This document shows, one piece after another, positions 15,946-57,873 of a DNA stretch of 64,000 bases (position 1 is its first letter; every line of letters starts with the position of its first letter). Source of the stretch: Verrucomicrobiota bacterium (GTDB lineage Bacteria > Verrucomicrobiota > Kiritimatiellia > CAIKKV01 > CAITUY01); the NCBI GenBank assembly GCA_011391785.1, contig JAABPW010000228.1, positions 9,946 through 73,945 on the forward strand, in the 5' to 3' direction. Both the position numbers and the translations under genes were made by a program. The notes below the pieces were generated by a model that saw only the letters and a list, made by a program, of their open reading frames with translations, had not been told where the DNA came from and did not search any database.

Positions 15946-15955
15946 GGGGAAGCCC

Positions 15956-17464: not shown

Positions 17465-17574
17465 TATTCGTTGAAGTGTTGGCGGGTCATTATGGATTTT
17501 GACAGGGAGGGAATCAAGTGATTTCAACGATTTCAGTCTGGACACGCGGGCATTGCATCAGCAGGATAGGTCCC

Positions 17575-18360: not shown

Positions 18361-18405
18361 CGGTAACCTGCTGTCCTTTGACGTTTCCCGTCTTGTAAAA
18401 CAAAA

Positions 18406-18430
18406 AACCGGCTCATTGCTGAGCCGGTTT
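18406..18430. terminator. bidirectional rho-independent terminator between the hypothetical gene (+) and fusA (-)
   Basis: perfect hairpin AACCGGCTCA-ttgc-TGAGCCGGTT; on the minus strand it is followed by TTTTTTGTTTT, on the plus strand by TTT. Confidence 0.8.
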
Positions 18431-18452
18431 CCGTCAACTTCGACCGTGTCCC

Positions 18453-37159: not shown

Positions 37160-37206
37160 CGTGTCTCCCTTGTCGTTAAAGATATGAAGTGCCTTCCGGG
37201 GTGCGA

Positions 37207-38112: not shown

Positions 38113-40584
38113 ATGTTTGAATCATGTCATGGAGCCGCAGCACTGTTGCTTGCGGTGATGCTGGTGGGGGGGGATGGCCTTGGGGCCGAGGACCGGTCTT
38201 CCGACGTGGATTCGCCCGGGGCGCGTGTGGCCTTGCGGAAGGCCATTGAGGATTTGTCGGAGACATTCCAGGACCGGTATCCGCGCGGGAAGGAATTCCT
38301 CGCCCGACTTGACAAGCTGAGCGATAAGAAGGCCTTTCTTGCGCTTCAGCGTGAGGCCCTGCTGGCTAATCCCCTGATCTCCGGCCAACCCCTCCTGTTT
38401 GTGGTGCGTCACCAGTACGCGGCGGATCACCACAACACCGAGACCATGTTTCAAACGGGTGAAATCAATACCAAAAAGTTCGAGGGGGGCGGCGCCCTGA
38501 AGTCGATTGATTTCGCCCGGGGCGGCGAGGTCAGGACCCTCGTCGATGCCGGTGACGCGGGCGTGGTGCGGGACCCGGATGTGTATTTCGACGGGAAGAA
38601 GATCCTCTTTTCGATGCGCCGGAACATCCGCGAGGATTATCACCTTTACGAGGTGCAGGCGGATGGGACGGGGCTCCGGCAGCTGACTTCCGCGGCCGGC
38701 GTGTTTGACATAGATCCGCTTTACTTGCCTGACGACAGTATTGTCTTCACGTCCTCCCGGGAACCCAAGTACTGCGGGTGCAACCGCCACATCATGGGCA
38801 ACCTTTTCCGGATGGATTCGGATGGCGCCAACATTCATCAGATCGGGAAGAGCACCTTGCACGAGGGGCATGGCAACCTGTTGCCCGATGGCCGTATCCT
38901 CTATGATCGCTGGGAGTATGTGGACCGTAACTTCGGGAGCGCCCAGGGACTCTGGACGGTCAATCCCGATGGAACCTATCACCAGATCTACTGGGGCAAC
39001 AATACGGCCAGTCCCGGCGCCGTGCTTGAGGGGCGGGTGATTCCCGGAACAGACAAGGTGCTCTGTACGTTTTCGTCCTGCCATGACCGGCCCTGGGGGG
39101 CGCTGGCGATCATTGACCGGCAGCGCGGGGTTGACGGGCGAGATCCTGTGGTGTGGACCTGGCCGGCGTACGCCATTAACCTGGTGGATGAGGACGGGAA
39201 CTACGATTCGTTCGGGAAAATCAAACTCAAGTACGAGGATCCTTATCCCCTCGGCGCGAAATATTTCCTATGTTCCCGGATGAGCGGAAAGGGAGCGGGC
39301 ATGGGGCTTTACCTGGTGGATTTGTTCGGCAATGAAATCCTGCTTCACGCGGAAGCGCCAGGCTGTTTCGACCCGATGCCGATAGTGGCCCGGACCCGTC
39401 CCCCGGTGATTCCCGTCCGGCGCGATTATACTGGGAATGAAGGAACATTTTTCATCCAGGACGTGTATCAGGGGACGCATTTGAAAGGGGTCAAGCGCGG
39501 GGACGTGAAGTTCCTGCGGGTGATTGAGGTTCCGGAAAAGCGGGGGTGGACCTATTCTGACTGGGCGGGGCAGGGGGCCATCGCCCCGGCGATGAACTGG
39601 TTCGATTTCAACAGCAAGCGCATCCTGGGGACGGTTCCGGTGGCGGAGGATGGCTCGGCGCATTTCGTGGTGCCGTCCGACACGTTCGTCTATTTCCAGC
39701 TGCTGGACAAGGACGGCCTGATGATCCAGTCCATGCGCAGTGGAACGATCATCCAGTCCGGGGAGCGCCAGGGTTGCGTCGGGTGCCACGAGAACCGGAT
39801 AACGGTTCCGATGACGTCGGCGCCCAAAAACCTCATCGCGTTGCAGCAGCCGCCGGCCCGGTTGACGGGGTGGCATGGCCCCGCGCGGTACTTCAACTAC
39901 CGGGCCGAAGTTCAGCCCGTTTTTGACCGGAACTGCGTGAGTTGCCACGATTTCGGAAAACCGGCGGGGAAGGTGCTGAATCTCGCAGGCGACCGGGGCA
40001 TGGTGTTTAACGCCTCGTATAGCAGCTTGTGGAACAACAACATGATGAAGGTGATTTCGGCCGGCCCCTCGGCAATCCAGGAAGCCTTGACCTGGGGTGC
40101 CCGCGTCAGCCCCCTGGTGAAGACGCTGAAACGGGGGCACAAGGACGTGAAGTTATCGGCCGAGGACATGGACCGGATTGTGACCTGGATTGATATCAAC
40201 GCTCCTTATTATCCCTCCTATTACTGTGCCCATCCCGCGAATGCGTTCGGGCGGTCTCCGCTCGACCCGGGTCAGCTTGATCAGCTCGAATCGCTGGGGA
40301 TTGACTTGCAGAAGAAGAAAAACATCAGCCGGGTGAGTTTTGACAGGCCTGAAAAGAGCCTTTGTCTGGAGGAGATGGGGGGCCCGGACGGGCACCGGTA
40401 CAAGGCGGTGCTGGCGATCCTCAAGGCCGGGCAGGCGGAATTGGCGGCGCACCCCGAGGCGGACGCAGCGGGATTCGTTCCGTGCGCCAAGGATCAGGAG
40501 CGGGAAGAAAAATATGAAGCCCGCCGCCAGACGGAATTGAGAAACCGGCGGAGTATTGCCACCGGCGCCAAGGCGCACGATTAG
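38113..40584 (+). CDS. secreted TolB-like beta-propeller protein with two CxxCH motifs (PSCyt1-like), paralog A
   Basis: 823 aa; close paralog of 52456-54792 (shared blocks REPKYCGCNRHIMGNLFRMDSDGANI, MRSGTIIQSGERQGCVGCHENR, NCVSCHDFGKPAGKVLNLAGD, IVTWIDINAPYYPSY). Confidence 0.8.
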   Translation: MFESCHGAAALLLAVMLVGGDGLGAEDRSSDVDSPGARVALRKAIEDLSETFQDRYPRGKEFLARLDKLSDKKAFLALQREALLANPLISGQPLLFVVRHQYAADHHNTETMFQTGEINTKKFEGGGALKSIDFARGGEVRTLVDAGDAGVVRDPDVYFDGKKILFSMRRNIREDYHLYEVQADGTGLRQLTSAAGVFDIDPLYLPDDSIVFTSSREPKYCGCNRHIMGNLFRMDSDGANIHQIGKSTLHEGHGNLLPDGRILYDRWEYVDRNFGSAQGLWTVNPDGTYHQIYWGNNTASPGAVLEGRVIPGTDKVLCTFSSCHDRPWGALAIIDRQRGVDGRDPVVWTWPAYAINLVDEDGNYDSFGKIKLKYEDPYPLGAKYFLCSRMSGKGAGMGLYLVDLFGNEILLHAEAPGCFDPMPIVARTRPPVIPVRRDYTGNEGTFFIQDVYQGTHLKGVKRGDVKFLRVIEVPEKRGWTYSDWAGQGAIAPAMNWFDFNSKRILGTVPVAEDGSAHFVVPSDTFVYFQLLDKDGLMIQSMRSGTIIQSGERQGCVGCHENRITVPMTSAPKNLIALQQPPARLTGWHGPARYFNYRAEVQPVFDRNCVSCHDFGKPAGKVLNLAGDRGMVFNASYSSLWNNNMMKVISAGPSAIQEALTWGARVSPLVKTLKRGHKDVKLSAEDMDRIVTWIDINAPYYPSYYCAHPANAFGRSPLDPGQLDQLESLGIDLQKKKNISRVSFDRPEKSLCLEEMGGPDGHRYKAVLAILKAGQAELAAHPEADAAGFVPCAKDQEREEKYEARRQTELRNRRSIATGAKAHD

Positions 40585-40772
40585 AATCCGTTGCACTTTT
40601 CCTTGAAATTGCCAGTCTCTTTAGTGCTTTAAACTTTGTATTGCAAAGTACTCTGCATTTTAATAGTGTTGATGGCGAAAGCAGCGGTAATGCCGGGCAG
40701 GGAGCCTGGACTGGGAGCGGCTGCTCGGGAAACCAGAAGGGGCGCGCAGCCCTGTTTGAAAAGGAGCCGGTC

Positions 40773-41528
40773 ATGAGCGAGATGGATGCAACCAATGGAA
40801 TTCCGGATGCGGGAGGCTATGGGGGGATGAGCGGGCAGGGCAGGACAACGCCCATGATCGCGTTTGAGGGGGACTATCATGCCATGAGGGGGATCGTGGG
40901 TGGGGCCGCGATTATCGAGGCGGTGCTCAAGCATCCGGCAGCGCTGGTCTACGAATTGACGAAGGGACGGGGCCGCTCCGTGGCGGTATGGCTGGTGTTG
41001 GTGGCCGGGCTGTGTCTGCTGGCCTATGGCGTGATCATGGGATCCTACAAGGGAGGCGTCATGTATCTCGTCGCCCCGGCCAAGATGGTCATGGGCGTGT
41101 TCCTTAGTTCGCTGCTGTGCCTGCCCAGCCTGTATATCTTCAGCAGCATGGGCGGGAGCCGGCAGACGCTTGGGGAAACGGCCGGACTTTTGCTGCTATG
41201 CCAGGCCCTTTCCGGACTGCTGCTGCTCGGCTTTGCCCCGATCGCCTGGGTGTTTTCACAATCCACCAGCGCGCTGGCGTTCATGGGGTTTCTCCATCTG
41301 GCGATGTGGCTGTTGGCTACGTTTTTTGCGGTTCGGTTGCTATCCCTCGCCCTGGAGTTCCTCAACAAGCGCAAGATGGGCGTCCTGAAGGTCTGGGCCG
41401 TGATCTTCGTTGTCGTGACGCTGCAGATGAGTGCCGTGCTGCGTCCCCTTATTGACAAGCCCGGGGCTACCCTGATTGAGCACGAGAAGATGTTTTTCAT
41501 GACCCATTGGGGCCGATGCATGGACTGA
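40773..41528 (+). CDS. hypothetical polytopic membrane protein
   Basis: ~251 aa from MSEMDATNG (RBS AAAAGGAG); 5-6 TM helices; paralogous to the next gene. Confidence 0.6.
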   Translation: MSEMDATNGIPDAGGYGGMSGQGRTTPMIAFEGDYHAMRGIVGGAAIIEAVLKHPAALVYELTKGRGRSVAVWLVLVAGLCLLAYGVIMGSYKGGVMYLVAPAKMVMGVFLSSLLCLPSLYIFSSMGGSRQTLGETAGLLLLCQALSGLLLLGFAPIAWVFSQSTSALAFMGFLHLAMWLLATFFAVRLLSLALEFLNKRKMGVLKVWAVIFVVVTLQMSAVLRPLIDKPGATLIEHEKMFFMTHWGRCMD

Positions 41529-44335: not shown

Positions 44336-47300
44336 CTATGGCATAATCCCTACATTGATTTTGTAGTAGCCGCAGGGGGAGAGAGTGGCATTGGTGAAAC
44401 CACTTTTTGTCCAGGGAATATTGCTTTCTAGGCATTGAAACCCGCTTAGCAGATTGGTCGTCCAGTAAACCGAATAGACCCGTCCGGAAACGGCATTCCA
44501 GTCGAGTATATTGTTCGTGCCAGGCCGGTATCCTGTAATGCCAAACCCGGCCTCTTCGTCGTTTGGATCGAATCCGGCTAGATAGGCTTCGAGCACGGTG
44601 TTAATGCCGTTGGAGCAAACAGCATGCGGATTTCCATTTGTAATATTGCCGCAATGCTCCTGTTCCCAGGTATCAGGAATTCCATCACCATCGGCATCCC
44701 ACGGAATGATGGTGAGATGAAAGGTTTGCTGGATAGGCTGGTTCTCGGGTCCTGGCGGGCCCGGTAGACTGGCCATGACCAAAATATCCCATGTACCGGC
44801 AGTGGTCGGGATGCCCTCCAATTTGCCGTTTAAGGCGGATACCCCGGGCGGAAGGGTTGCCATCGGGTTGATGCTGATCTGAGAGGAAAGCGACGTCGCA
44901 AACATCCAAAGGAAACTGACCCCCACACGGGCGGAGGCCGAGCTGGCAGTGGTGAAAACAAGATTCGTAGCTCCTCCCCCGGACACCTCGATACGTGCGG
45001 GATCACTGGAGACAGTGCCACCCGGATTCCTGATCACAACACGAAACCAGCAGGTCGCGGAGAGTGCTGGCGTTGTTACGGTGTTGGATGTAGCGCCCTC
45101 AATGTCCGTATAAAGGCCGCCAAAGTCCGATGCCATCGACCACTGATAGGTCAGCAAATCGCTGGTGGCGGTAACGGAAAGTTGCGCCGTAGATCCCGCC
45201 GTAATTGGAGCGATGCTGCTGGCGGGCTGAACCGTGATCGTGGGGGCAGGATGAGCCGCATAGTAGGCGCTTTGGAGGGGGGCGAGCTCGTCGTTTCTAA
45301 GCCCTGTAACGACACTGTAACTGCCATCGTCCGCCAGAAAAGCCTCATCGGACAAATCCCAGAGTTGATCCATCACCGCGTTGAAACGGGCAATGAAGTC
45401 AGCCTCCGCCATGGAAAACCAGGACGGGACCTCCTCTATGATAACGGCCTTCATGGCCGTGATGCGATGGGGAAGATAATTGGTGGGGGCGTCAAGCCCG
45501 GGATCAGGCAGGTCCCTCATATTCGGCAAGCCGTTCCAATGAAGAATTTGATCCTGAGTCTCTCCTCCCACCGTGGGTTCCCCAGTCAAGCCGGTAAGGC
45601 GCACCGCCTCGCTCGTGTTGAGGAGCGCGTGATAGCGTGCAAGCTGGTTCGACACCGCTGAGGCATCGATCGGGTGCGCCTCTGAAGAATAGGTGGCCGC
45701 ATTGGTCCAGTCATCATAAACAAGCAAACGATGGAGGGAGCCACCCCCTTCGTAGGCTTGAACACGCGCAAAGGCCGCTTGATAGCCGTGCCACGCAGAG
45801 TCGTAAGCGTCTTTGAATGCCGGATTGGCCGTGACTAGAGCCTCATATTTCGACTGCAGGGCGCGAGCCGCAGTAAGTCCTGCGCTCCCCGGCGTGGCGA
45901 GAGCGGCGAGCAGCGAGGTTTTGTAAGTCGCCATCGAAAAGGCGTGCCCAACGACCAGCGTAAAGTCCTCCGGCGTTTGGGAGAAGTAACCGAGGCGCCC
46001 GATTGGCGGGTTCTGGGGTATGTTGAGAATAGGCTCCAACGGTCCGAGTACGAGGCCTGACGATGAAGCCAATGCGTTTTCCCACGCAAGGCCCTGTGCG
46101 ATCAAAACGGCTAAGGCGCCTTCTGCGGCGGAAAGATTTCCGTCGAGGTCAGCGGAAACGGAAGCGATTCCGCCGCTCCAGGTCACCACGGCGTCGGCCA
46201 GTTTATCCGCCAGCGTTTGCGCATTAACGAGTGACACGGGAAGCTGAGTCAAATACTGACCAAGACTAACCGCCAAATCCTCTGCCGGAGCTTGCCCCAT
46301 GCCGGGAATGTTGCTCCAGCCGGAGGAATAATAATTCTCAGGTGTGTCGCTATAGCCGCTCTCCTCGAGCAACGTCTTGAGCGAACGAGTCTGGTTCTGC
46401 AGGTTGAAAAGGGTGTTGTAGAGATCCGTGAGCGCCTCAACGTGAACAATTAACCCCGGCAATGCCGGGCCGGTAGGGGTCACATCGGTGACCCATTGTT
46501 GAATGGCGGCGCATGAGCTGATCGAGTCGTTATATGAAGCCGTCGTGTTGGCATCGAGGGTGTCTCCGTAAAAGGTGGAGATAAAGCCGGCGATCCGGGG
46601 CGTGGTGAGATAGACGGATACGCCGGTATCGATGGATGTTTGCCGCGCTTCGATCTGGGCCTGGCAGTTGGTGATTGCGGTGATCGGCGCCTCGGCGTTC
46701 CAGCGCGCAATCGCGGCATTGCGCACACGGGTTTGGTAGTCCGGAATGGGCTCGTTCTCTTCCTGCGGCGGGATTGGCTGATGAACCGGTGGCGAAACGG
46801 CGGACTGATTGGCGGCGAGTCTGGCCGCACCCTCTTCAAGCAGCTGCTGGGCCTTCAAGTCATCCAGCGCCGCAATGAGCGTAGCGAGCTCCTCTTCAAG
46901 GTGGCTCACCTCAGCTTGCGCCAGGGGGAGATCGAGGTCAGCATCGGTCTTGGCGGTGGCCGCTTCCGTGCTGAGGGCGTCCAGGGTCCCCAGGGCGGTG
47001 GCGATCGCGGTACGTACCATGCCGTTCTTGTAATAAATGACGCCAGGGCCTGTGGGGAGGATCACCTTGCCCGTTTGCTTCAGACAGGCACTGGCCACCG
47101 CATAGCCGTCCAACGCCAGTGTTTCCTGAACCAGGCCAAGGTTGGGGAAAGTGGCGCGTGCCGCATCAGAGACCGCCTTGATTTTTACATTGCGCGGACT
47201 ACAGAGCGTTTCGTCGTCAAGCCCCATCGCTTTTTTACGAGCATTATCGGCTCCGCTCTGAAGCGTTTCCAGCGCTACTTTACCCACGGCATTCCGGAGC

Positions 47301-47725
47301 CCGTGGGTAATCAGCGCATTGGCGGCAGTCTTGCCGATATTGATTTTATCAGCGACCTCGTTACAGGTCACGATGCCCAGTTGAATCGTGGTTTTGATGA
47401 GATTTTTGTTGTTGATATCCGCCAGCGTAACATCCGCGCTCCTGAGTTGCTGGCGAGCAGCGGTGATATCACTGGTTTTGGTGTCGAAATTGTCCAGAAA
47501 TTCGCTTAATATCGCAAGTTGGCGCTGTGCGGCGAGCAATTCAGCTTGCTTCGAATTGATCTCGCTCATCTTGGCCGTAATGGCACCTTCGTAGTCACCA
47601 GCGTTCGCCCCTGATTGTCCCTTGATCAGCGCCGAACCCTCGACATTAACGATTGCATTCACATCCTGAGCAATGCAGGCTGCGGTCATAGCCAGAATAA
47701 CTGCAGCTATAAAACTTCTCTTCAT
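44336..47725 (-). CDS. giant secreted hypothetical protein (N-terminal coiled coil, Ig-like region, thrombospondin-type Ca-binding DADGDGIPD motif)
   Basis: ~1130 aa from MKRSFIAAVILAMTAACIAQD; lower GC (~50%) than its surroundings; no catalytic motifs recognised. Confidence 0.7.
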   Translation of the reverse strand: MKRSFIAAVILAMTAACIAQDVNAIVNVEGSALIKGQSGANAGDYEGAITAKMSEINSKQAELLAAQRQLAILSEFLDNFDTKTSDITAARQQLRSADVTLADINNKNLIKTTIQLGIVTCNEVADKINIGKTAANALITHGLRNAVGKVALETLQSGADNARKKAMGLDDETLCSPRNVKIKAVSDAARATFPNLGLVQETLALDGYAVASACLKQTGKVILPTGPGVIYYKNGMVRTAIATALGTLDALSTEAATAKTDADLDLPLAQAEVSHLEEELATLIAALDDLKAQQLLEEGAARLAANQSAVSPPVHQPIPPQEENEPIPDYQTRVRNAAIARWNAEAPITAITNCQAQIEARQTSIDTGVSVYLTTPRIAGFISTFYGDTLDANTTASYNDSISSCAAIQQWVTDVTPTGPALPGLIVHVEALTDLYNTLFNLQNQTRSLKTLLEESGYSDTPENYYSSGWSNIPGMGQAPAEDLAVSLGQYLTQLPVSLVNAQTLADKLADAVVTWSGGIASVSADLDGNLSAAEGALAVLIAQGLAWENALASSSGLVLGPLEPILNIPQNPPIGRLGYFSQTPEDFTLVVGHAFSMATYKTSLLAALATPGSAGLTAARALQSKYEALVTANPAFKDAYDSAWHGYQAAFARVQAYEGGGSLHRLLVYDDWTNAATYSSEAHPIDASAVSNQLARYHALLNTSEAVRLTGLTGEPTVGGETQDQILHWNGLPNMRDLPDPGLDAPTNYLPHRITAMKAVIIEEVPSWFSMAEADFIARFNAVMDQLWDLSDEAFLADDGSYSVVTGLRNDELAPLQSAYYAAHPAPTITVQPASSIAPITAGSTAQLSVTATSDLLTYQWSMASDFGGLYTDIEGATSNTVTTPALSATCWFRVVIRNPGGTVSSDPARIEVSGGGATNLVFTTASSASARVGVSFLWMFATSLSSQISINPMATLPPGVSALNGKLEGIPTTAGTWDILVMASLPGPPGPENQPIQQTFHLTIIPWDADGDGIPDTWEQEHCGNITNGNPHAVCSNGINTVLEAYLAGFDPNDEEAGFGITGYRPGTNNILDWNAVSGRVYSVYWTTNLLSGFQCLESNIPWTKSGFTNATLSPCGYYKINVGIMP

Positions 47726-47790
47726 TTCTGTCCTCCTGACGTCATGGCTCACTGGCGACGAGCCTGACAGTGCGGCCACTTGTTTGCAGC

Positions 47791-48399: not shown

Positions 48400-48480
48400 T
48401 GGTGATAATATCTGGCTGGATTCACTATAGTTCGGTTCACAAAAGGTTCCCGATATGGGGCCGTGGGGAGATACCGGACT

Positions 48481-49485
48481 ATGCGTACTAGGAAACTCGG
48501 GAATTCAGGGATTGAAGCTTCTGTTGTCGGGCTTGGCGCCTGGGTGCTGGGCGGGGGGGCGGTGTGGGGGGCTGATACGGATGACAACGAGTCCATCGCC
48601 ACGATCAAATCGGCCCTGGATGCGGGCATCACTCTCATTGACACGGCACCCGCCTACGGGTTCGGGCGCAGCGAGGAGGTTGTGGGCAAGGCGATCCGCG
48701 GCCGGCGCGGCCAGGTTGTCCTGGCCACCAAGTGCGGGCTGTGGTGGGATGACCAGCGCGGATCCTACTTCTGTGAGTTCGACGGGCGCCCGATCCAACG
48801 ATCCCTGCGTCCCGACACGATTGTCATCGAACTCGAAAACAGCCTGCGGCGACTGGGAACCGATTACATCGACCTTTACCAGAGCCACTGGCCAGCGGTG
48901 GCGCCCGACAAGACTCCGATTGCCGACACCATGGCGTGCCTGATGAAGCTGAAGGAGCAGGGGAAGATCCGCGCCATCGGGGTCTCCAATGTGTCCATCC
49001 CGGAGCTGGGTGAGAATCTCGCCAGCGGGGATGTGGCCTCGAACCAGTTCCGCTACAGCATGCTGCACCGGGCCCCGGAGCAGGATATGCTCCCGGCCTG
49101 CCGCCAGAACAATTTGGCCACGCTGACCTACATGAGCCTCGAGCAGGGACTGCTGACCGGCAAGGTAGGCATGGACCGGTCCTTCTCGTCCGGCGATTTC
49201 CGCAGTAACGAAGCCTGGAATCCCTGGTACAAGATCGAGAACCGCCAGCGCGTGCTGGATTTTCTGGCCGGGTTCAAGCCCTTGACTGAAAAGTACGCCT
49301 GCACCACCGCCCAGCTGGTTATCGCCTGGACCCTGGCTCAGCCCGGCGTGACCCACACTCTGGCCGGCGCCCGCCGCGAGGCGCAGGCCCGGGAGAATGC
49401 CCGCGGCGGCGATATCCTGATCGAAATCGATGATTTGAAGGCCATGTGCAAGGCCGTGGAGGTGCTCGGTGAACCGATACGCTAA
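48481..49485 (+). CDS. aldo/keto reductase
   Basis: ~334 aa from MRTRKLGNSGIEAS; AKR TIM-barrel motifs (GITLIDTAPAYG, IDLYQSHWP). Confidence 0.88.
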   Translation: MRTRKLGNSGIEASVVGLGAWVLGGGAVWGADTDDNESIATIKSALDAGITLIDTAPAYGFGRSEEVVGKAIRGRRGQVVLATKCGLWWDDQRGSYFCEFDGRPIQRSLRPDTIVIELENSLRRLGTDYIDLYQSHWPAVAPDKTPIADTMACLMKLKEQGKIRAIGVSNVSIPELGENLASGDVASNQFRYSMLHRAPEQDMLPACRQNNLATLTYMSLEQGLLTGKVGMDRSFSSGDFRSNEAWNPWYKIENRQRVLDFLAGFKPLTEKYACTTAQLVIAWTLAQPGVTHTLAGARREAQARENARGGDILIEIDDLKAMCKAVEVLGEPIR

Positions 49486-52399
49486 GCGATATGCGACGAT
49501 GATCATCGGCGGGGCGTTGTGGCTGGCAGGGCAGACCGCCCCGGCCTTTGAGACAAACGCCCTGGCTCGCGCCATTGAGGACCTGTCGGCCTCGTTCCCG
49601 GCGCACTACACGCAGGGAGCTGATTTCCTGAAGCAATTGGCGGCGGTCCGCACCGAGGCTGAGTTCGCGGCCCTGGAGCGGAAGGCCCTGTTGGCCAATC
49701 CGCTTCTCGATTTCGACCAGGTGCTGGTGGTCAGGCGCGGCGCCGATAAGCTCGCCCTTCCCCAGAATTGGCAGGGAAACTGCGCCCTTCCTCCCAAAGG
49801 CTATCGCAACGACATCGCTGTCCTCTCCCTCTCCAACGGGGTTGCCAGGGCGCTCTTCACGCCGACCAACGGGGTGTTCGTCGGGGATGTGGATCTGGAT
49901 TTCGATGCCGACAAGCTCCTGTTCTCGATGCCTGATGACGCTGGCAACTGGCATGTCTGGGAACTGGTCGCGAACGGGGCCGGCCTTAAAAAGGTCACTC
50001 CCGATGAGCCGATGATTGACCAGTACGACGCCTGTTACCTGCCGGATGGCGGGATTATTTTCAACTCCACCGCCGCCGTTGCCGGGGTGCCCTGTGTCGG
50101 GGGCGGGACGGTTGTGGCCAACCTTTTCCGCATGTCGGCCGACCGGAGCACGATCCGGCGCCTATGCTTCGACCAGGAGCACAATTGGTGCCCCACGGTG
50201 TTGAATGACGGGCGTATCCTGTACACCCGCTGGGAATATACCGACACGCCGCATTACTTCACCCGCCTGCTGTTCTCGATGAATCCGGACGGAACGACCC
50301 AATCGGCCTACTATGGTAGCAATTCCTATTGGCCCAATTCCATCTTCTATGCGCGGCCCATTCCCGGTGTAGCGGGCAAGGTGGTTGGGATTGTCTCCGG
50401 TCACCACGGCGTGACGCGGATGGGGGATCTCATCCTGTTTGATCCGGGCTTCGGCCGCAACGAGTCCGCCGGGGTCGTCCAGCGTATTCCCGGGTTCGGG
50501 AAAAAGGTTGAACCGGTAATCAAGGATCAGCTGGTGGATGATGTCTGGCCGAAGTTCCTGCATCCCTATCCGCTGAGCGCGAAATATTTCCTGGTTTCCT
50601 GCAAGCCCGGACCCCATGAAAAGTGGGGGATATACCTGGTGGACGTTTTCGACAATAGGGTGCGGCTCTACGACGAGCCGGGCATGGCCATCCTGGAGCC
50701 CATCCCGTTCCGGAAGACCGTCAGGCCCCCGGTGATTCCCGACCGTGTCAATCTGGATGAAAAGGAAGCCACGGTCTATCTCAACGATGTCTATACGGGC
50801 CCCGGCCTCGCGGGTGTGCCTCGCGGGACAGTGACAAAACTTCGCGTCTACACCTATCATTTCGCCTACCCGGGAATGGGGGGGCATATCAACGTGGGGA
50901 TCGATGGCCCCTGGGATGTGCGCCGTTTACTGGGAACCGTGCCGGTCAATGCCGATGGCTCAGCATCGTTCAAGGTGCCTGCCAACATGCCCCTGGCCCT
51001 GCAGCCGCTGGACAAGGACGGGCAGGCCCTCCAGATCATGCGGAGCTGGTTCACCGCCATGCCCGGTGAGAGCGTGACCTGCGCGGGGTGTCATGAGAAG
51101 CAGAATACCACCCCGCCATCGCGACCGAACAAGGCGGTTCTGCAGAAACCGGTAACGATCACCCCGTGGTACGGTCCTTTCCGCGGTTTCAGCTTCACCC
51201 GCGAGGTGCAGCCGGTCCTGGACCGGAACTGCACCGGGTGTCATTCCCAATTCGCCGCGAACCAGCCCAAGATCGGCGGCTTTACCCGTTCCTATTTCGC
51301 CCTGCATCCCTTTGTGCGGCGGCCTGGCCCCGAGAGCGATTACCATATGCCGAAGCCCTACGAGTATCATGCAAGCACCAGTGAGCTGGTCCAGATGCTG
51401 CGCCAGGGGCATCATGGTGTCCGGCTCGACAAGGAGGACTGGGACCGCCTCACGACCTGGATCGACCTCAACGTCCCCGATCATGGCACATGGGGCGAGC
51501 ACCACTCCATCCCGGCAAACATGGAGACGTTGCGCCGGGACATGCTGAAGAAGTATGCGCAGATGGACGATAACCCGGAGGTGATCCCGGAGACGCCTGC
51601 CAGAAGCACTAAATTTGTCCCGCCCGCCGCGACGTCTCAGGAAAAACCGGCCGTCAAGGACTGGTCCGTTGATGCCCGCTGGGGCCAGGGACTGGCCCCT
51701 GAAATGAAATTCGATCTCGGGGAGGGGAAGGTTATGGAGCTGGTCCTGATCCCGGCGAAGAAGCCCTTCTATATGGGGCGTTTCGAGGTCGTGAATGCGC
51801 AGTACCGGCTGTTCGATCCGGATCATGACAGCGGTTATGTCCAGATCTTCAACAAGGACCGAACGGCCCGGGGGGTTCCGGTTAATGGGGCGGCCCAGCC
51901 TGTCGTGCGGGTCACCTGGCAGGAAGCCTCGGCTTTCTGTGCCTGGCTGTCGAAGAAAACGGGGAACAAATTCAAGCTGCCCGACGAAGATCAATGGGAA
52001 TGGGCCTGCCGCGCCGGAAAGGCGACCCCGATGTGGTACGGGGAGACCAACGCGGATTTTGCAACGTTCGCCAATCTGGCGGATACCAACCTGGCAGAAT
52101 TAACCCCCGGGAATTCCCCGAAATGGATTCCGGCGATCCGGACGGTCGATGACGGGGTGGCGGCAACGGCCGGGGTGGGGCGCTATCTGCCGAATCCGTG
52201 GGGACTTTACGACATGCACGGGAATGCCGCGGAATGGACCTCGTCCGTGACCCGCGAGGGGGAGCGGATCTGTCGGGGCGGCTCCTTCTATGACCGTCCG
52301 AAACGGGCCACCGCCAGTTCGTACCGCGGCTATCTTCCTTTCCAGCCGGTTTTTGATGTCGGGTTCAGGGTAATCATGGAACTTCCCGATCGTAAATGA
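49469..52399 (+). CDS. secreted TolB-like beta-propeller / CxxCH (PSCyt1-like) protein fused to a C-terminal FGE-sulfatase (formylglycine-generating enzyme family) domain, paralog C
   Basis: 976 aa; GTG start with GGAGG RBS, overlapping the AKR stop; propeller blocks paralogous to A/B; TCAGCHEKQ and NCTGCHSQ; C-terminal ~270 aa is FGE-like (RVTWQEASAFCAWL...WEWACRAG...MHGNAAEWTSS...RGGSF). Confidence 0.8.
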   Translation: MNRYAKRYATMIIGGALWLAGQTAPAFETNALARAIEDLSASFPAHYTQGADFLKQLAAVRTEAEFAALERKALLANPLLDFDQVLVVRRGADKLALPQNWQGNCALPPKGYRNDIAVLSLSNGVARALFTPTNGVFVGDVDLDFDADKLLFSMPDDAGNWHVWELVANGAGLKKVTPDEPMIDQYDACYLPDGGIIFNSTAAVAGVPCVGGGTVVANLFRMSADRSTIRRLCFDQEHNWCPTVLNDGRILYTRWEYTDTPHYFTRLLFSMNPDGTTQSAYYGSNSYWPNSIFYARPIPGVAGKVVGIVSGHHGVTRMGDLILFDPGFGRNESAGVVQRIPGFGKKVEPVIKDQLVDDVWPKFLHPYPLSAKYFLVSCKPGPHEKWGIYLVDVFDNRVRLYDEPGMAILEPIPFRKTVRPPVIPDRVNLDEKEATVYLNDVYTGPGLAGVPRGTVTKLRVYTYHFAYPGMGGHINVGIDGPWDVRRLLGTVPVNADGSASFKVPANMPLALQPLDKDGQALQIMRSWFTAMPGESVTCAGCHEKQNTTPPSRPNKAVLQKPVTITPWYGPFRGFSFTREVQPVLDRNCTGCHSQFAANQPKIGGFTRSYFALHPFVRRPGPESDYHMPKPYEYHASTSELVQMLRQGHHGVRLDKEDWDRLTTWIDLNVPDHGTWGEHHSIPANMETLRRDMLKKYAQMDDNPEVIPETPARSTKFVPPAATSQEKPAVKDWSVDARWGQGLAPEMKFDLGEGKVMELVLIPAKKPFYMGRFEVVNAQYRLFDPDHDSGYVQIFNKDRTARGVPVNGAAQPVVRVTWQEASAFCAWLSKKTGNKFKLPDEDQWEWACRAGKATPMWYGETNADFATFANLADTNLAELTPGNSPKWIPAIRTVDDGVAATAGVGRYLPNPWGLYDMHGNAAEWTSSVTREGERICRGGSFYDRPKRATASSYRGYLPFQPVFDVGFRVIMELPDRK

Positions 52400-52455
52400 T
52401 ACTCTCAACCCCGTTGCCCTGGGAGGGGGGCTGTCTGCATCGAGAAGGGGGAGGC

Positions 52456-54792
52456 ATGAGTATCAGGTTTGATCGTCTCTGTTCCATATTCGTGCTGATA
52501 TCGGCTGTTCCCGTGTTTGCCGCGGACGTGTCGCCGTCGCTGCCTGAGGTGGCGAAGCAATCGGTCCTGTTCGTCACGCGCCACCAATACCAGCGCGACC
52601 ACCATAACACGCACGATTTCTTTCCCGTGGCGGAGCATGAATTCAACCTGGGTGAATTCACGCCCGGCAGCGCCATGAAGATTATCGAGCTGCCGTCGCG
52701 GAAGATCACCACCCTCCTGGAAACGAAGACGGGCGTCATCCGCGACCCGGACCTGAGTTATGATGCCCGGAAAATTGTCTTCTCCATGCGCCGCGACACT
52801 CAGGACAGTTATCACATCTACGAGATCAATGTCGATGGGACGGGCTTGAGGCAACTGACGTCGCTGAAGGATGCCGATGATCTCGACCCGGTCATCCTGC
52901 CGGATGGCCACATCCTGTTCAGCTCTACCCGGGAACCGAAGTACTGCCTCTGCAACCGGCATATCATGGGCAACCTGTACCGCATGGAGCCGGATGGCGC
53001 CAACATCATCCAGATCAGCAAGAACACGCTGTTCGACAACAAGCCCTCCGTGATGCCGGATGGACGGATCCTCTATACGCGCTGGGAATATGTCGACCGC
53101 GAGCAGCTGAGCGCCCAGGGCCTGTGGGTCTGCAATCCCGACGGCACGCGTCACCAGTTGATCTGGGGGAACAACACGCAAAGTCCGGGCGGCATCCAGG
53201 ATGGCCGCATCATTCCTGGCACCCGTCAGCAGATCGTGTGCACCTTCTCTCCCTGCCACGACAGGAGCTGGGGGGCGATTGCCCTTATCAACCGATCCCT
53301 CGGCATGGACGGTCCGAAGCCCGTGGTGAAGATCTGGCCCGCCTCCGCCCGCCGCCTGATTGCGGAGGTCGGTTCCTGTGATGCCTTTGCCGTATGTAAT
53401 CCCAAGTACGAGGATCCCTATCCCCTGACGTATCCCGGGACCGGAATCGCGGGCCGCTATTTCCTCAGCATCCGAACCATCGGCAAGGGCGAAAAAACCG
53501 CGATCGTCCTGCTTGATGCCGAAGGCGAGGATGTTGTCCTGCACGAGGAGGTGGGGCCGCTGGGTTGCTTTGACCCCATGCCGGTGAGGGCAAGGGAAAA
53601 GCCGCCCGTTGTCCCGGCGCAACGCAAATACGATATTGGATCGGAAGGGGCCTTGTATATTTCCGACGTCTATAACGGAACCCACATGCAGGGGATCGCC
53701 AGGGGCGATGCCAAGTTCCTGCGAATTGTCGAAACGCCGGAAAAACGGTTTTACGTGCTACGGCATACCTGGACCGCCCCGGCCATCAACTGGAATGAAT
53801 TCAACACCAAGAGGATCATCGGCACCGTGCCGGTGGAGGAGGATGGCTCTGCCTATTTCACCGTTCCGTCCGAGAAATTCGTCTACTTCCAGTTGCTCGA
53901 CAAGGATGGCATGATGATCCAGTCCATGCGCAGCGGCACCTATGTCCAGCCGGGAGAAACGCAAGGGTGCAACGGCTGCCACGAGAACCGCCTGTCCACC
54001 CCGCTCACGCGCCCTGACAAGTCGGCGGCCTTGAGGAAGAAGCCCGCGGTCCCCTCAGGATGGTACGGGAGCAGGGAGTCCTTCAATTTCCTGTCCGCGA
54101 TCCAACCCATCCTGGACCAGCACTGCCTGAAGTGTCATGACTACGGCGGGCAGGGGGCCAGGAAAGTTGTGCTTGCGGGAGATAAGAGCGTCCCTTTCAA
54201 TGTGTCCTACATGGAACTGCACCGCAAAAAATATCTCGGCAGCATCGGGGCCGGCCCGGTTCCCATTTTCCAGCCGAAAACATGGGGATCCCATGCCAGT
54301 AAACTCATCGACATCCTGCGGAAGGGGCACAAGGAGGTGCGCCTGTCGCGGGAAGAACTCGACAAGATCATCACCTGGGTTGATCTCAATGCCCCTTATT
54401 ACCCCTCCTTTGCCTGTTCCTTCCCGGACAATGTGACGGGGCGCTGTCCGTTGAACGACGAGGAGTTGACGCGGCTCGAACAGATGACCGGGCGACCGGA
54501 CCTGATCGCCAGCCTCAATGAATGGGCCTGGAAAGCGCCTGAACCATTCCTGAATTTCGACCGGCCGGCCCTGAGCCCGATCATGCAGGCCGTTCCTGCG
54601 AAGGACAAGGAAACCGCCTTGAAGATCATTCAGACTGGCGCATTGCGTCTAAGGGACAAGCCTCGCGCCGACATGCCCGGGTTCAAGTTGTCGGGCCTCG
54701 ATGAATGGCGTGAAGAGAAGTATCAGAAGCGCCTTGGCCGTGAAGCGGTCAACCGGGAGGCCGTGACCAAGGGTAAAAAGGTCTATGATTGA
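52456..54792 (+). CDS. secreted TolB-like beta-propeller protein with two CxxCH motifs (PSCyt1-like), paralog B
   Basis: ~778 aa from MSIRFDRLCSIFVLISAVPVFAADV (RBS GGGGAGG); closest paralog of 38113-40584. Confidence 0.8.
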   Translation: MSIRFDRLCSIFVLISAVPVFAADVSPSLPEVAKQSVLFVTRHQYQRDHHNTHDFFPVAEHEFNLGEFTPGSAMKIIELPSRKITTLLETKTGVIRDPDLSYDARKIVFSMRRDTQDSYHIYEINVDGTGLRQLTSLKDADDLDPVILPDGHILFSSTREPKYCLCNRHIMGNLYRMEPDGANIIQISKNTLFDNKPSVMPDGRILYTRWEYVDREQLSAQGLWVCNPDGTRHQLIWGNNTQSPGGIQDGRIIPGTRQQIVCTFSPCHDRSWGAIALINRSLGMDGPKPVVKIWPASARRLIAEVGSCDAFAVCNPKYEDPYPLTYPGTGIAGRYFLSIRTIGKGEKTAIVLLDAEGEDVVLHEEVGPLGCFDPMPVRAREKPPVVPAQRKYDIGSEGALYISDVYNGTHMQGIARGDAKFLRIVETPEKRFYVLRHTWTAPAINWNEFNTKRIIGTVPVEEDGSAYFTVPSEKFVYFQLLDKDGMMIQSMRSGTYVQPGETQGCNGCHENRLSTPLTRPDKSAALRKKPAVPSGWYGSRESFNFLSAIQPILDQHCLKCHDYGGQGARKVVLAGDKSVPFNVSYMELHRKKYLGSIGAGPVPIFQPKTWGSHASKLIDILRKGHKEVRLSREELDKIITWVDLNAPYYPSFACSFPDNVTGRCPLNDEELTRLEQMTGRPDLIASLNEWAWKAPEPFLNFDRPALSPIMQAVPAKDKETALKIIQTGALRLRDKPRADMPGFKLSGLDEWREEKYQKRLGREAVNREAVTKGKKVYD

Positions 54793-54910
54793 GCCACGGC
54801 GCCCTATTGAATAACCACCCGAAAGTGGGGGTTCCAATATTCTTATTTCGGGTTACCTTTAAGCAAATGACCGAGATGGGGTGTCTACTATGGAGAAGGG
54901 GATAATTTTA

Positions 54911-56770
54911 ATGAAAAACTATCTGCGGTTTACGATGTCGGGTGTTGGGGCTGTCCTGGTGTGTGTCCTTGTGTCCCAGGCCCGGGCGGGATGGTTCAGT
55001 GCAAAAAGCGAAGCCCGTTATTATTCCCCTTGCGCCGTTGTGGCATCCGACGATGGTAACGATGTGTTCGTGGCCGAATATTCCGCCAACCAAGTGGTCC
55101 AGGCTGATGTTGTCAAGGGAGGCCTGAAGCGCACCATTGCCACAAAACTACCCCCGTCCGGTCTTGCCCTGGATTCCAGGTCCGGTGTCCTGTTTGTCAC
55201 ACTGGAGTCAAACGAGGGACAGGTTGTCCTGATCGACACCCGCACGGGAAAGCTGGAAGCCCGGATTGCCGTTGGCCATACCCCGCTTGCGCCGGCGTTG
55301 AGTCCCGACGGGAAGACCCTGGCCGTCTGCAACCGGTTCAATAACAATGTCAGCCTGATTGACGTCCCTTCCCGCAAGGAATCGGGGCGGGTTGCCGTTT
55401 CCCGGGAGCCCGTGGCGGCGGCCTTCTCGCCCGATGGTCGTCAGCTCCTGATCGCCAGCCATTTGCCGTCCATGCCCGCCAATGGCGACTATAGCGCTTC
55501 GGTCGTTACGGTGATTGATCCTGCCACGCGGCTTGTGGTGACCAACCTGACGCTTCCCAACGGGTCCACCGGGCTCCGGGGCCTGTGCGTTTCGCCCGAT
55601 GGCCGGTATGCCTATGTGACCCATACGCTTGGCCGGTATCAGTTGCCGACCACCCAGCTCGAGCGGGGGTGGATGAACACCAGCGCCATCAGCATTATTG
55701 ACCTGCAGGGCGTGAAGATGCTGTCCACCGTGCTGCTGGATGACGTTGACCTGGGGGCGGCTAATCCTTGGGGGGTGGCCTGTACGACCAATGGGGCGCT
55801 GTTGTGTGTGGCTCAGGCGGGCACGCACGAGGTCAGTGTGATTGACCGCAATGCCCTCCATGAACGCCTTGGCCGTGTTGCCAAGGGCGAGAAAGTCGGA
55901 GTGTCCCTGTCGCTGGAGGATGTCCCGAATGACCTGAGTTTCCTGGTCGGGATCCGGCAACGCGTCAAGCTGCCCGGGAACGGGCCCCGCGGGTTATGCC
56001 TGGCCGGTGACCTCGCGGTCGCGGGGATGTACTTCAGCGACAATCTGGCGGTTGTGTCGCTGACGACCACCCCGGTGGTGGCCCGCGAGGTGTCGCTTGG
56101 GCCCAAGACACCGCTTTCCGAGGAACGCAAGGGAGAGATGTATTTCAATGACGCCGCGTTCTGTTTCCAGGAATGGCAGAGCTGCGCGAGCTGTCACCCC
56201 GACGGAAGGGCAGATGCCCTGAACTGGGACCTGCTCAATGACGGGATTGGAAACCCGAAGAATACCAAGAACATGCTGCTGAGCGTTCAAACTCCGCCCT
56301 CGATGAGCCTCGCGGTGCGTGCGGATGCGGCCATGGGGGTTCGGGCAGGACTCAAGTTCATCCAGTTCTCCATGCGGCCTGAGGAGGATGCCCTGGCGAT
56401 TGATGCGTACCTGACCAAGATGAAGCCGGTTCCCAGCCCCTATCTCGAGAAAGGCAAGCTTAGCAAGGCCGCCCGCCGTGGCGAAAAGGTGTTCAGGAAG
56501 GCCAACTGCGCCACCTGTCATTCCGGCTCACTCTACACCGACCTCCAGACCCATGAGATGGGTATGGGGCAGGGGATGGACAAGGATAAGCCTTTTGATA
56601 CACCCACCCTTGTGGAGTGCTGGCGCACAGCGCCGTTTCTTCATGACGGGCGGGCCTCCACGATGAAGGAGCTGTTCCAGGAATTTAATAAGGATGACGT
56701 TCACGGTGACACCAGCAAGTTGTCGCCGCGGGAGCTGGATGACCTGGTGGAGTTTGTATTGTCGTTGTGA
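54911..56770 (+). CDS. secreted YVTN-family beta-propeller fused to a di-heme cytochrome c peroxidase (CCP/MauG-family) domain
   Basis: ~619 aa from MKNYLRF (RBS GAAGGGGA); N-terminal YVTN/PQQ-like repeats (SPDGKTLAVCNRFNNNVSLID, SPDGRQLLIASH, SPDGRYAYVTH); C-terminal CASCHPDG and CATCHSG with the CCP signature FDTPTLVECWRTAPFLHDGRASTMKE. Confidence 0.8.
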   Translation: MKNYLRFTMSGVGAVLVCVLVSQARAGWFSAKSEARYYSPCAVVASDDGNDVFVAEYSANQVVQADVVKGGLKRTIATKLPPSGLALDSRSGVLFVTLESNEGQVVLIDTRTGKLEARIAVGHTPLAPALSPDGKTLAVCNRFNNNVSLIDVPSRKESGRVAVSREPVAAAFSPDGRQLLIASHLPSMPANGDYSASVVTVIDPATRLVVTNLTLPNGSTGLRGLCVSPDGRYAYVTHTLGRYQLPTTQLERGWMNTSAISIIDLQGVKMLSTVLLDDVDLGAANPWGVACTTNGALLCVAQAGTHEVSVIDRNALHERLGRVAKGEKVGVSLSLEDVPNDLSFLVGIRQRVKLPGNGPRGLCLAGDLAVAGMYFSDNLAVVSLTTTPVVAREVSLGPKTPLSEERKGEMYFNDAAFCFQEWQSCASCHPDGRADALNWDLLNDGIGNPKNTKNMLLSVQTPPSMSLAVRADAAMGVRAGLKFIQFSMRPEEDALAIDAYLTKMKPVPSPYLEKGKLSKAARRGEKVFRKANCATCHSGSLYTDLQTHEMGMGQGMDKDKPFDTPTLVECWRTAPFLHDGRASTMKELFQEFNKDDVHGDTSKLSPRELDDLVEFVLSL

Positions 56771-56790
56771 TGGGGGGAGGGGGAACCACA

Positions 56791-57873
56791 ATGAAACTGC
56801 CGGAAAAAGATGTGGCGCGTTTTGTACGCCCGATCGGGCACTGCGGCGTAACGGAAGCCTGTCTCGGTGTGCAGCGTCTTGGCGACGACCCGATGTCGGT
56901 TTTCCAGGGGTTCCCTCAGGAACCCGGGGAAGTAGCGGCCCAACTGGTTTTTGGAGGGTGTCAATTCCAGGAAGCCGGCCAGGCGCTCATGGGCGGGGCC
57001 AAGTGGCCGATGATGTGGCTTCAGGGTGATCCGTGCGATGGGAAGCACGTGGCCGGGCTCCAAGCCCTGCTGCTCAAGGGTGCGTCCATCAGGCGGCTCC
57101 AGTTGGACGGTGCGGTGGTCGGATCGGCCTGGTCTGACGAGGATGCCGACTATTGCCTGCTGGCCGGGATTATGCCTTCCGATTTGTCTGCCTCCCGTAG
57201 CGATCAGGCGCGGCAGGTCTTTGAGCGGATCGAGACGGTCCTCAGGCAGGCGGACATGGGTTTTGACGACGTGATCCGAACCTGGCTGTATCTGGATCAC
57301 CTGCTCGACTGGTATGGGGATTTCAATGTCGTCCGCACCCGGTTTTTCGAGGAACGTGGCGTGATGGGGAAGCGGGTTCCTGCGAGCACCGGAATCGGAG
57401 CCCGCAATCCGCTCGGTTCGGCGATTGTGGCGGGTGCCCTGGCGATCCGCCCGAAACACAAGGGTGTCAAGATCACGCTGGTATCCTCGCCGCTCCAGTG
57501 TTCCGCCCTGGAGTACAAGAGTACCTTCAGTCGCGCGGTTGAATTGGAGTTTCCCGGGCGGCGCCAGCTGCTCATCTCCGGCACGGCGAGCATTGCCCCG
57601 GGGGGCGAATCGGTGCACCGGGGTGATACGGCGGCCCAGATCGAACTGACCATGAAGGTGGTTGCCGCCATCCTGGAGTCACGGGGCATGACGTGGAAGG
57701 ACACGACGCGCGCCATCGGTTATTTCCAGGACATGAAGGATGCCCCGCTGCTGGCGGAGTATTGCCGGGCAAACGGGATCAAGGACTTCCCGGTGGTCAA
57801 CGCCCACGCCACCGTCTGCCGCGATGATCTTCTCTTCGAGATCGAACTGGACGCCGCCGTTACCTGCTGCTAA
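56791..57873 (+). CDS. tandem RidA/YjgF-like (Rid family) protein
   Basis: ~360 aa from MKLPEKDV (G-rich RBS); two YjgF-like repeats (IRTWLYLDHLLDWYGDFNVVRTRFF, AIGYFQDMKDAPLLAEYC...VVNAHATVCRDDLLFEIELDA); assignment by motif resemblance only. Confidence 0.5.
   Translation: MKLPEKDVARFVRPIGHCGVTEACLGVQRLGDDPMSVFQGFPQEPGEVAAQLVFGGCQFQEAGQALMGGAKWPMMWLQGDPCDGKHVAGLQALLLKGASIRRLQLDGAVVGSAWSDEDADYCLLAGIMPSDLSASRSDQARQVFERIETVLRQADMGFDDVIRTWLYLDHLLDWYGDFNVVRTRFFEERGVMGKRVPASTGIGARNPLGSAIVAGALAIRPKHKGVKITLVSSPLQCSALEYKSTFSRAVELEFPGRRQLLISGTASIAPGGESVHRGDTAAQIELTMKVVAAILESRGMTWKDTTRAIGYFQDMKDAPLLAEYCRANGIKDFPVVNAHATVCRDDLLFEIELDAAVTCC

Follow-up and report, generated by a model that had tools for sequence, protein, structure and literature searches.

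A predicted dihaem c-type cytochrome resembling the hydrazine synthase alpha subunit, with a C-terminal cysteine-less FGE-like domain, in a Verrucomicrobiota bacterium

We analysed a stretch of 64,000 nucleotides (the window) from contig JAABPW010000228.1 of a Verrucomicrobiota bacterium, with the gene at 49469-52399 as the subject of study. Its product, called the target protein below, had been described in a first-pass annotation, made from the letters alone, as a formylglycine-generating enzyme (FGE) domain fused to a secreted, TolB-like and PSCyt1-like propeller body. The open reading frame (ORF) and all the FGE blocks quoted there are present in the translation (RVTWQEASAFCAWL, WEWACRAG, MHGNAAEWTSS and RGGSFYD), and two Pfam domains are significant in the 976-aa protein: PF18582, the middle domain of the hydrazine synthase (HZS) alpha subunit, and PF03781, the FGE-sulfatase domain. 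As detailed below, the N-terminal ~720 aa are a distant, full-length homologue of the HZS alpha subunit (HzsA), and the C-terminal part is an FGE-like domain in which the cysteine pair of FGE is absent. Table 1 lists the features of the gene and of its operon.

Table 1. Features of the target gene and of its operon, in window coordinates.
Feature	Coordinates	Strand	Basis or remark
Predicted HzsA-like dihaem c-type cytochrome with C-terminal Cys-less FGE-like domain (target)	49469..52399	+	976 aa from GTG; alternative ATG 49499
Predicted Sec signal peptide, aa 1-26, MNRYAKRYATMIIGGALWLAGQTAPA followed by FETN	49469..49546	+	read from sequence; pattern common to close homologues
Beta-propeller, aa ~84-413	49718..50707	+	repeated beta-strands in AlphaFold2 model; Foldseek matches to HZS alpha subunit and TolB propellers
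HZS_alpha middle domain, aa 453-543	50825..51097	+	Pfam PF18582, E 4.6e-30, profile 1-98 of 98
Haem-binding motif 1, C538-A-G-C541-H542 (CAGCH)	51080..51094	+	phmmer: aligned with HzsA haem alpha-I CSGCH (5c2v_A)
Haem-binding motif 2, C588-T-G-C591-H592 (CTGCH)	51230..51244	+	phmmer, second stretch: aligned with HzsA haem alpha-II CAMCH
FGE-like (FGE-sulfatase fold) domain, aa 745-976	51701..52396	+	Pfam PF03781, aa 765-969, E 1.4e-29
Aldo-keto reductase, first operon gene	48463..49485	+	Pfam Aldo_ket_red, E 5.6e-62
Second HzsA-like paralogue without FGE domain (CNGCH, CLKCH)	52396..54792	+	Pfam HZS_alpha, E 3.8e-31
Fused HzsB+HzsC homologue, 629 aa: beta-propeller and CCP/MauG-like dihaem domain (CASCH, CATCH)	54881..56770	+	phmmer
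RidA/YjgF-type protein with FkbO/Hyg5-like N-terminal domain, last operon gene	56767..57873	+	Pfam Ribonuc_L-PSP, 1.1e-16; FkbO_Hyg5-like_N, 7e-8
Inverted repeat, 22 nt, 95% complementary, 5-nt loop	57962..58010		repeat search; 89 nt after last operon stop

The GTG start codon of the target gene precedes the TAA stop codon (49483-49485) of the aldo-keto reductase (AKR) gene. The two genes overlap by 17 nt and a GGAGG lies 8 nt 5' of the GTG; the tight coupling that had been read from this overlap is accepted. An identical database protein, P0001, has 966 aa, i.e. it starts at ATG 49499, and an exact-sequence look-up gave no genomic context on record for it. The N-termini of the closest homologues consist of a short charged n-region, a hydrophobic core and an A-x-A site before F(D/E)TN. 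Because these homologues carry the charged n-region ahead of the hydrophobic core, the GTG start is favoured, and the predicted signal peptide of 26 residues then fits a Sec-exported, periplasmic protein.

The AlphaFold2 model of the full protein, built with a 65-sequence alignment, has a pLDDT of 84.7 and a pTM of 0.85. Its best Foldseek match among the solved structures is the HZS alpha subunit, 5c2v_A/D (E 2e-26, ~795 aligned columns, 17% identity), with a TM of 0.58-0.60 when normalised to the Foldseek target, and this is followed by partial matches to TolB propellers and FGE-fold proteins. The blocks RWEYxD, SGHHG and FLHPYP of the propeller are invariant. The first CxxCH motif is also invariant (120/120 relatives), and in the second the Cys are kept in 120/120 and the His in 119/120. 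H613 and H648 are invariant as well and are candidate axial ligands of haem II. The secreted propeller and the CxxCH motifs of the first-pass annotation stand. Its PSCyt1/TolB description of the ~720-aa body was rejected and is displaced by the HzsA homology (Pfam HZS_alpha, phmmer and Foldseek); no Pfam match to PSCyt1 was found in the target protein. For the protein overall, we hold this structural identification with high confidence.

In HzsA, haem alpha-I carries Tyr591 on the iron, and His587 and Cys303 on zinc. The phmmer alignment of the target with HzsA ends at the motif His, and the residue four positions after this His, which corresponds to Tyr591 if no indel is assumed, is a near-invariant Asn546. 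The NCBIfam model hydrazine_alpha (NF052339) gives the target 35.7 bits against a cut-off of 800. Since this score is far under the cut-off and the Tyr591 position is Asn if there is no indel, the target protein, judged from its sequence, is not an HzsA orthologue. Loss of Tyr591 has been reported for other homologues (PMC12758564).

The FGE-like domain is about 232 aa long (745-976) rather than the ~270 aa first estimated. PF03781 matches it with 104 bits against a cut-off of 23.3, and the match starts at model position 35 because the segment at the start of the domain has been deleted. This segment ('GEFVMGD..DE.P..V.I', 22-24 residues; window 51701-51770, aa ~762-767) is missing from the query and from the eight relatives closest to it, and the other 111 relatives retain it. 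The core blocks WxxAxxxCxW, LPTExEWE, GNxxEWT and GGS are conserved.

FGE catalysis needs two cysteines that hold Cu(I) (10.1101/2021.05.21.445229). We aligned the core of human FGE (SUMF1), verified as identical to PDB 1y1e, with the query and 59 relatives. This is the comparison that the first-pass annotation had proposed for the copper-binding Cys pair, whose absence it took as the sign of a non-catalytic FGE-like fold, and the pair is absent from the query and the 59 relatives. Human Cys336 corresponds to Asp942 (52292-52294), with Asp in 58 of the 60 aligned sequences, and Cys341 falls inside a 3-residue deletion that is a gap in 60/60. In the target domain Trp299 is replaced by Ala, and both disulfides of human FGE are without partner cysteines (Cys346 becomes Ala/Ser and Cys365 becomes Val). 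The calcium-site residues N869, D895, D915 and E922 (human N259, D273, N293 and E300) are kept in 58-60 of the 60. With the Cys pair absent, the domain cannot be a copper-dependent FGE and therefore cannot make formylglycine. Nor was a sulfatase association found: a PROSITE-type sulfatase signature has 0 sites in the 64-kb window, and only 2/82 related loci carry one.

Among FGE-fold proteins of known structure, a profile search of the PDB with the domain placed PvdO first (1.5e-27), PorK/GldK second (3e-25) and the true FGEs after them (2e-24), and the domain is thus about equally far from all three. PvdO was also the best Foldseek match, with FGEs (E ~2e-9), CarF and ToxD among the others, and the best single-sequence match in the PDB was ToxD (7SPQ, E 1e-12, aa 767-968). 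No NCBIfam family of the FGE fold reached its cut-off, and the best partial matches were GldK (TIGR03525, 68.5 bits vs 350, over the core 810-928 only) and PvdO (NF051459, 67 bits vs 500), not an FGE. The domain has a set of invariant polar residues (E773, H786, K796, D797, R814, R848 and D942-R943-P944), is always C-terminal and is present in all 120 close relatives. Going by these sequence features, it is a distinct Cys-less subfamily. The earlier statement that FGE-family proteins are normally stand-alone proved weak, as many proteins other than FGEs make use of the fold (10.1101/2021.05.21.445229) and the present fusion occurs in at least 535 loci.

These loci, with the fused HzsA-FGE architecture, were obtained from a scan of one genome per species. 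The best 80 of the at least 535 cover query residues ~30-971 and come from Planctomycetota, Verrucomicrobiota (Akkermansiaceae, Lentisphaerae and Victivallales), Hydrogenedentota and Sumerlaeota, together with isolated metagenome-assembled genomes (MAGs) labelled Nitrospirales/Nitrospiraceae, Anaerolineales and Bacillota. Several genomes contain multiple HzsA-FGE copies. All of 1.84 billion cluster representatives were searched, and 1,958 clusters (50% identity) reach E <= 1e-30 with the query; the longer relatives have 150-300 additional N-terminal residues. The top 120 database matches are 54-78% identical to the query and all have PF18582 and PF03781. Their sources are Planctomycetota, Kiritimatiellae and one MAG labelled Nitrospiraceae, and they are named either 'SUMF1/EgtB/PvdO family nonheme iron enzyme' or 'formylglycine-generating enzyme required for sulfatase activity'. 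JGI gives the latter name to many members (P0010, P0013, P0018 and others), and this name is contradicted because the Cys pair is missing. For the operon genes, the closest relatives belong to Victivallales/Lentisphaerae and to a lake MAG that is unclassified.

The architecture given by the first-pass annotation was thus upheld and its functional reading was not; it had also missed both the HzsA-like nature of the body and the homologue of the HZS beta and gamma subunits that lies two genes downstream. In phmmer the fused protein matches 5c2v_B (2.5e-33) and 5c2v_C (1e-25). Its SCASCH is identical to the first haem motif of the gamma subunit and its CATCH is aligned with the second. The NCBIfam model hydrazine_BC matches it with E 1.3e-46 and 159 bits against a cut-off of 1250, and on this sequence comparison it is only a distant relative. 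Between it and the target lies the FGE-less HzsA-like gene, called alpha-prime here, which scores 73 bits with hydrazine_alpha (cut-off 800); its true start is likely the ATG at 52456, which is preceded by GGGGGAGG. For the flanking members of the operon, the nearest NCBIfam family of the AKR is the NADH-dependent methylglyoxal reductase YdjG (NF049922, 319 bits vs cut-off 550), and the RidA-like protein obtains 71.7 bits with a chorismatase subfamily (cut-off 325). The inverted repeat after the last gene, which is without an obvious T-run on the + strand, may mark the end of the transcription unit. A scan of the operon for sigma-70 promoters and terminators gave sites no more numerous than in shuffled sequence.

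The paralogy of the N-terminal ~720 aa of the target to three other genes of the window, as noted at first, was confirmed by BLASTP: 36% over 686 aa with 38113-40584 (E 1e-107), 33% over 627 aa with 52396-54792 (E 5e-90) and 26% over 435 aa with 33317-37363 on the - strand (E 2e-19). All four carry Pfam HZS_alpha (PF18582). They lie inside 22 kb, at 33317-37363 (-), 38113-40584 (+), 49469-52399 (+) and 52396-54792 (+), and the second and the fourth of these share 49% mutual identity. The one on the - strand (1348 aa) has HEAT repeats, a single CxxCH and a weak match to an alpha-L-rhamnosidase N-terminal domain.

Neighbouring genes were counted in flanks that reach at most 10 kb from the match on either side, in 85 related loci by tblastn and in 82 by clustering. 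In the clustering, the ORFs were filtered on GC1-GC2 and the coverage was tightened, against antisense ORFs and chaining by single linkage; one "conserved neighbour" of 366 aa proved to be an antisense artefact. By tblastn, a homologue of the fused beta-gamma protein (HzsBC-like) occurs in 16/85 loci, two of which duplicate other loci, while 8 loci contain a RidA-like homologue, 7 an AKR and 26 a further HzsA-like gene. By clustering, the HzsBC-like gene was found in 13 loci, mostly as the next gene on the same strand. An AKR homologue with 62-76% identity adjoins HzsA-FGE in loci L040, L055, L063, L068 and L079, and a RidA-like gene follows the HzsBC-like gene in L022, L029, L036, L050 and L068. 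A related arrangement is that of L068, from a MAG assigned to Victivallis vadensis, where an HzsA-like gene lies upstream and is joined by HzsA-FGE, AKR (76%), HzsBC (54%) and RidA-like (48%) genes; L050, a Victivallales MAG, has HzsBC, RidA-like and HzsA-FGE genes. Victivallales, Hydrogenedentota and Phycisphaerae all have examples of the gene set, and the linkage of the alpha-prime and beta-gamma homologues to HzsA-FGE is conserved across phyla.

Another gene order was seen in L029 (Hydrogenedentes), where 324-10886 (+) is a tight same-strand series of DhaK, DhaL, a DeoC/LacD aldolase, a Tat-signal protein (~220 aa, no Pfam match), HzsA-FGE, HzsBC and a RidA/FkbO-like gene. The order in L012, L013 and L036 is similar. 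Operons of this type suggest that the complex feeds a ketose or dihydroxyacetone-type pathway. DhaK/DhaL are present in 7/82 loci and GH29 fucosidases in 5 loci after the filtered clustering. Other neighbours are GFO/IDH/MocA oxidoreductases with Tat-type N-termini, GH78 rhamnosidases, SASA esterase, GH97, FGGY kinase and sugar-type regulators. Going by these counts, the neighbours point loosely to small carbonyl or sugar metabolism.

Two further related loci show how the paralogues are arranged. In the closest related genome (L006, 25-7109, 70-73% identity), the orthologue of 38113-40584 (74%) lies directly upstream of HzsA-FGE and a third HzsA-like gene follows it; because this order differs from that of the window, the paralogues are shuffled between genomes. 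In L002 (Kiritimatiellae, 2098-19088) there are five consecutive HzsA-like genes, two with an FGE-like domain and two with an F5/8 type C (discoidin) domain, and an IclR regulator and an alpha-L-fucosidase are nearby.

In the rest of the window, the 295-aa ORF at 40641-41528 (+), directly 3' of 38113-40584, is matched by no Pfam or NCBIfam model and lacks homologues among the related loci. The 1147-aa ORF at 44336-47779 (-) has no Pfam match, a weak NCBIfam match to the ZirU family and no homologue in the 85 related loci. Two large sulfur-handling proteins are adjacent at 20679-22760 (-) and 23245-25269 (-), one with a sulphur-transport domain and three rhodanese domains and the other with a metallo-beta-lactamase fold and rhodanese domains. 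The remainder is ordinary chromosome (PurL, IMPDH, EF-G, DnaG and 2-oxoacid:ferredoxin oxidoreductase), and no pyoverdine genes were found among the window ORFs scanned.

Combining these results, we propose with moderate confidence that the target protein is one alpha-type subunit of an HZS-like periplasmic haem-protein complex and carries a Cys-less FGE-like domain. Its body is made up of the beta-propeller, the middle domain and a helical C-terminal domain, with two covalent c-type haems predicted at the alpha-I and alpha-II positions, and the FGE-like domain is joined to it via a linker of ~45 residues. The alpha-prime paralogue and the fused beta-gamma homologue, both from the same operon, would be the other members. 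By analogy with HZS, a small molecule may be transformed at the alpha-I-like haem, at the interface of the propeller and the middle domain, electrons may pass through the alpha-II-like haem, and the alpha-I-like reaction is possibly coupled to chemistry at the CCP/MauG-like gamma dihaem site. The FGE-like domain would serve to bind a ligand or a partner, or would be an auxiliary redox module in the manner of PvdO or some auxiliary site of a kind not yet recognised. Cys-less proteins of the FGE fold can act purely by binding, as Tsi3 does in binding its effector (10.1101/2021.05.21.445229). The product would be taken up and processed in the cytoplasm by the AKR and the RidA-like protein, or elsewhere by DhaK/DhaL and a DeoC-type aldolase; these partner genes suggest that it is a small carbonyl or a ketose. 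Any specific statement on the function of the complex is tentative and, in our judgement, rather doubtful.

Several points weigh against this proposal. The mechanism is drawn by analogy with a protein just 17% identical to the target. About 80% of the related loci have no HzsBC-like gene in the flanks (many of the contigs are short), and because most loci show none there, many family members may work without HzsBC. In the aligned sequences, the density of invariant polar residues in the FGE-like domain suggests an active site or a metal site rather than a passive scaffold. Finally, the link to sugars or carbonyls is circumstantial, because each type of neighbour occurs in 5-8/82 loci only.

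The residues just mentioned bear directly on an alternative in which the FGE-like domain is itself catalytic, as a PvdO-like periplasmic oxidoreductase for which the haems form an electron conduit and the HzsA-like body is mainly wiring or scaffold. PvdO was the best match both in the PDB profile search and in Foldseek, the invariant residues include D942-R943-P944 at the former Cys336 site, and the C-terminal domain is kept in all close relatives. Nevertheless, PvdO activity was never shown in vitro (10.1101/2021.05.21.445229), the NCBIfam PvdO score is far from its cut-off, no cofactor site can be named, and the clade of the query tolerates a deletion in the domain. Since the FGE-less paralogues keep the whole haem body, this body is more than wiring. 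We consider the alternative unlikely, though it deserves some weight.

The neighbourhoods suggest another alternative, a periplasmic dehydrogenase or oxidase that acts on glycan-derived sugars or polyols, with the FGE-like domain as a lectin-type carbohydrate-binding module. The recurrent AKR, GFO/IDH/MocA, DhaK/DhaL, DeoC/LacD aldolase, GH29, GH78 and SASA esterase genes would agree with it, as would the fucosidase, GH97 and FGGY kinase of other contexts and the F5/8 type C domains on paralogues. However, such genes are abundant in these genomes, so that with each association at 4-8/82 loci an enrichment is unproven, and the target protein matches no known carbohydrate-active family in Pfam or NCBIfam. 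We consider this account of the family improbable.

That the operon of this non-anammox bacterium encodes a genuine hydrazine synthase, or some other enzyme that forms an N-N bond with NO or hydroxylamine as substrate, is very improbable. It is true that the operon has homologues of alpha and of fused beta-gamma whose four haem motifs all align, and that the structure matches 5C2V over its full length. A tentative lead in the same direction is that ToxD, the best single-sequence PDB match of the FGE-like domain, belongs to the synthesis of a toxin with an N-N bond. On the other hand, the NCBIfam scores for alpha and beta-gamma, the 17% identity to HzsA and the Asn at the Tyr591 position (if no indel is present) all speak against it. 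The window has four paralogues and related genomes have several, members of the family occur in heterotrophs among the Planctomycetota, Verrucomicrobiota, Hydrogenedentota and Sumerlaeota, and homologues of this kind do not conserve the key residues of HZS (PMC12758564). Because all the NCBIfam hydrazine-synthase scores are far under their cut-offs, our reading of the sequences is that the complex is not hydrazine synthase and the organism is not anammox.

The functional reading of the first-pass annotation, an active FGE for a dedicated or unusual sulfatase-type substrate that the propeller recruits and for which the haem supplies electrons, has the conserved fold, core blocks and calcium-site residues and the position of a periplasmic domain beside haems in its favour, but it is scarcely credible and is ruled out at the sequence level by the missing Cys pair (with Trp299 replaced), and the segment lost at the domain start in the clade of the query, the near absence of sulfatase signatures and the NCBIfam models of the FGE fold, all under cut-off with GldK and PvdO nearest, count against it as well.

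Beyond the HZS-like complex that we prefer, one may speculate that alpha (with its FGE-like domain), alpha-prime and beta-gamma constitute a new periplasmic type of two-site haem enzyme, a sister or ancestor of HZS widespread among heterotrophs of the PVC group and Hydrogenedentota, in which the FGE-like domain would be a new catalytic or substrate-recognition site. Such an enzyme could perform N-O/N-N chemistry or the oxidation of amines or carbonyl sugars and pass its product to the RidA-like protein, AKR, DhaKL or aldolase. We give this extension only a small chance.

Hydrazine synthase commonly passes for an evolutionary orphan. The HzsA-like dihaem family is very large, as the 1,958 clusters indicate, and a large subset has an FGE-like domain of degenerate type and frequently occurs together with a fused HzsBC-like partner. 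The function of the complex in ordinary glycan-degrading anaerobes would reveal the chemistry from which HZS evolved. The family offers a tractable route to this ancestral function. A related gene set is present in the MAG assigned to Victivallis vadensis, a cultivable species. An annotation problem is corrected too, as the members that JGI labels as sulfatase FGEs cannot have formylglycine-generating activity. The family is large, already sequenced and uncharacterised, and the description that suits it best is a non-anammox HZS-like alpha subunit in an FGE-like-tagged variant; it is not a new kind of system, but the known range of HZS relatives is widened considerably.

We finally compare the target with known systems, beginning with the FGE-like domain. 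ToxD is cytoplasmic and stand-alone, unlike the target; we take it to act with the WD-repeat protein ToxC in the biosynthesis of toxoflavin, an N-N-containing compound, although the ToxC/ToxD papers did not confirm this. PorK/GldK, the Tsi3 immunity proteins and TvpA likewise have a Cys-less FGE fold as a structural or binding scaffold, whereas the target has no lipoprotein, type IX secretion or type VI secretion context and its domain is fused to a haem protein. SUMF1 and the bacterial FGEs share the fold, the core blocks and the calcium-site residues with the target and differ from it in the Cu-binding Cys pair, Trp299, the disulfide partners and the linkage to sulfatases. PvdO of Pseudomonas (5HHA) resembles the target in being periplasmic and in having an FGE fold from which the cysteines of FGE are missing; it is stand-alone and serves in pyoverdine maturation, unlike the target, which has no pyoverdine context.

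For the body, HzsA of Kuenenia stuttgartiensis (5C2V) has in common with the target the propeller, the HZS_alpha middle and the C-terminal haem domain, the two CxxCH motifs at aligned positions and the co-encoded beta and gamma homologues. The target differs in its low identity and in its score under the NCBIfam cut-off, probably in lacking the axial ligand Tyr591, in its extra C-terminal FGE-like domain and in belonging to a multi-copy family of non-anammox heterotrophs. Related gene clusters were described by Hagglund et al. 2025, who found that a few anaerobes outside the anammox group have genes for distant homologues of alpha and of fused beta-gamma side by side, in clades I-IV, and read them as a complex of unknown function in which key HZS residues are not conserved (PMC12758564). 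Their co-location in Planctomycetota and other anaerobes agrees with our observations. Clade IV, in which the gene order depends on the taxon and genes for FG-GAP proteins and ABC transporters are lacking (PMC12758564), is alike by description, since the present type of locus also varies in gene order and is without an FG-GAP or ABC-transporter gene. The FGE-like fusion is not in that paper, in which FGE, sulfatase and formylglycine are not mentioned (PMC12758564), and our literature search found no paper that names both hydrazine synthase and formylglycine-generating enzyme. Finally, the non-anammox alpha homologues were described as few (PMC12758564), whereas here the fused form alone accounts for at least 535 loci.

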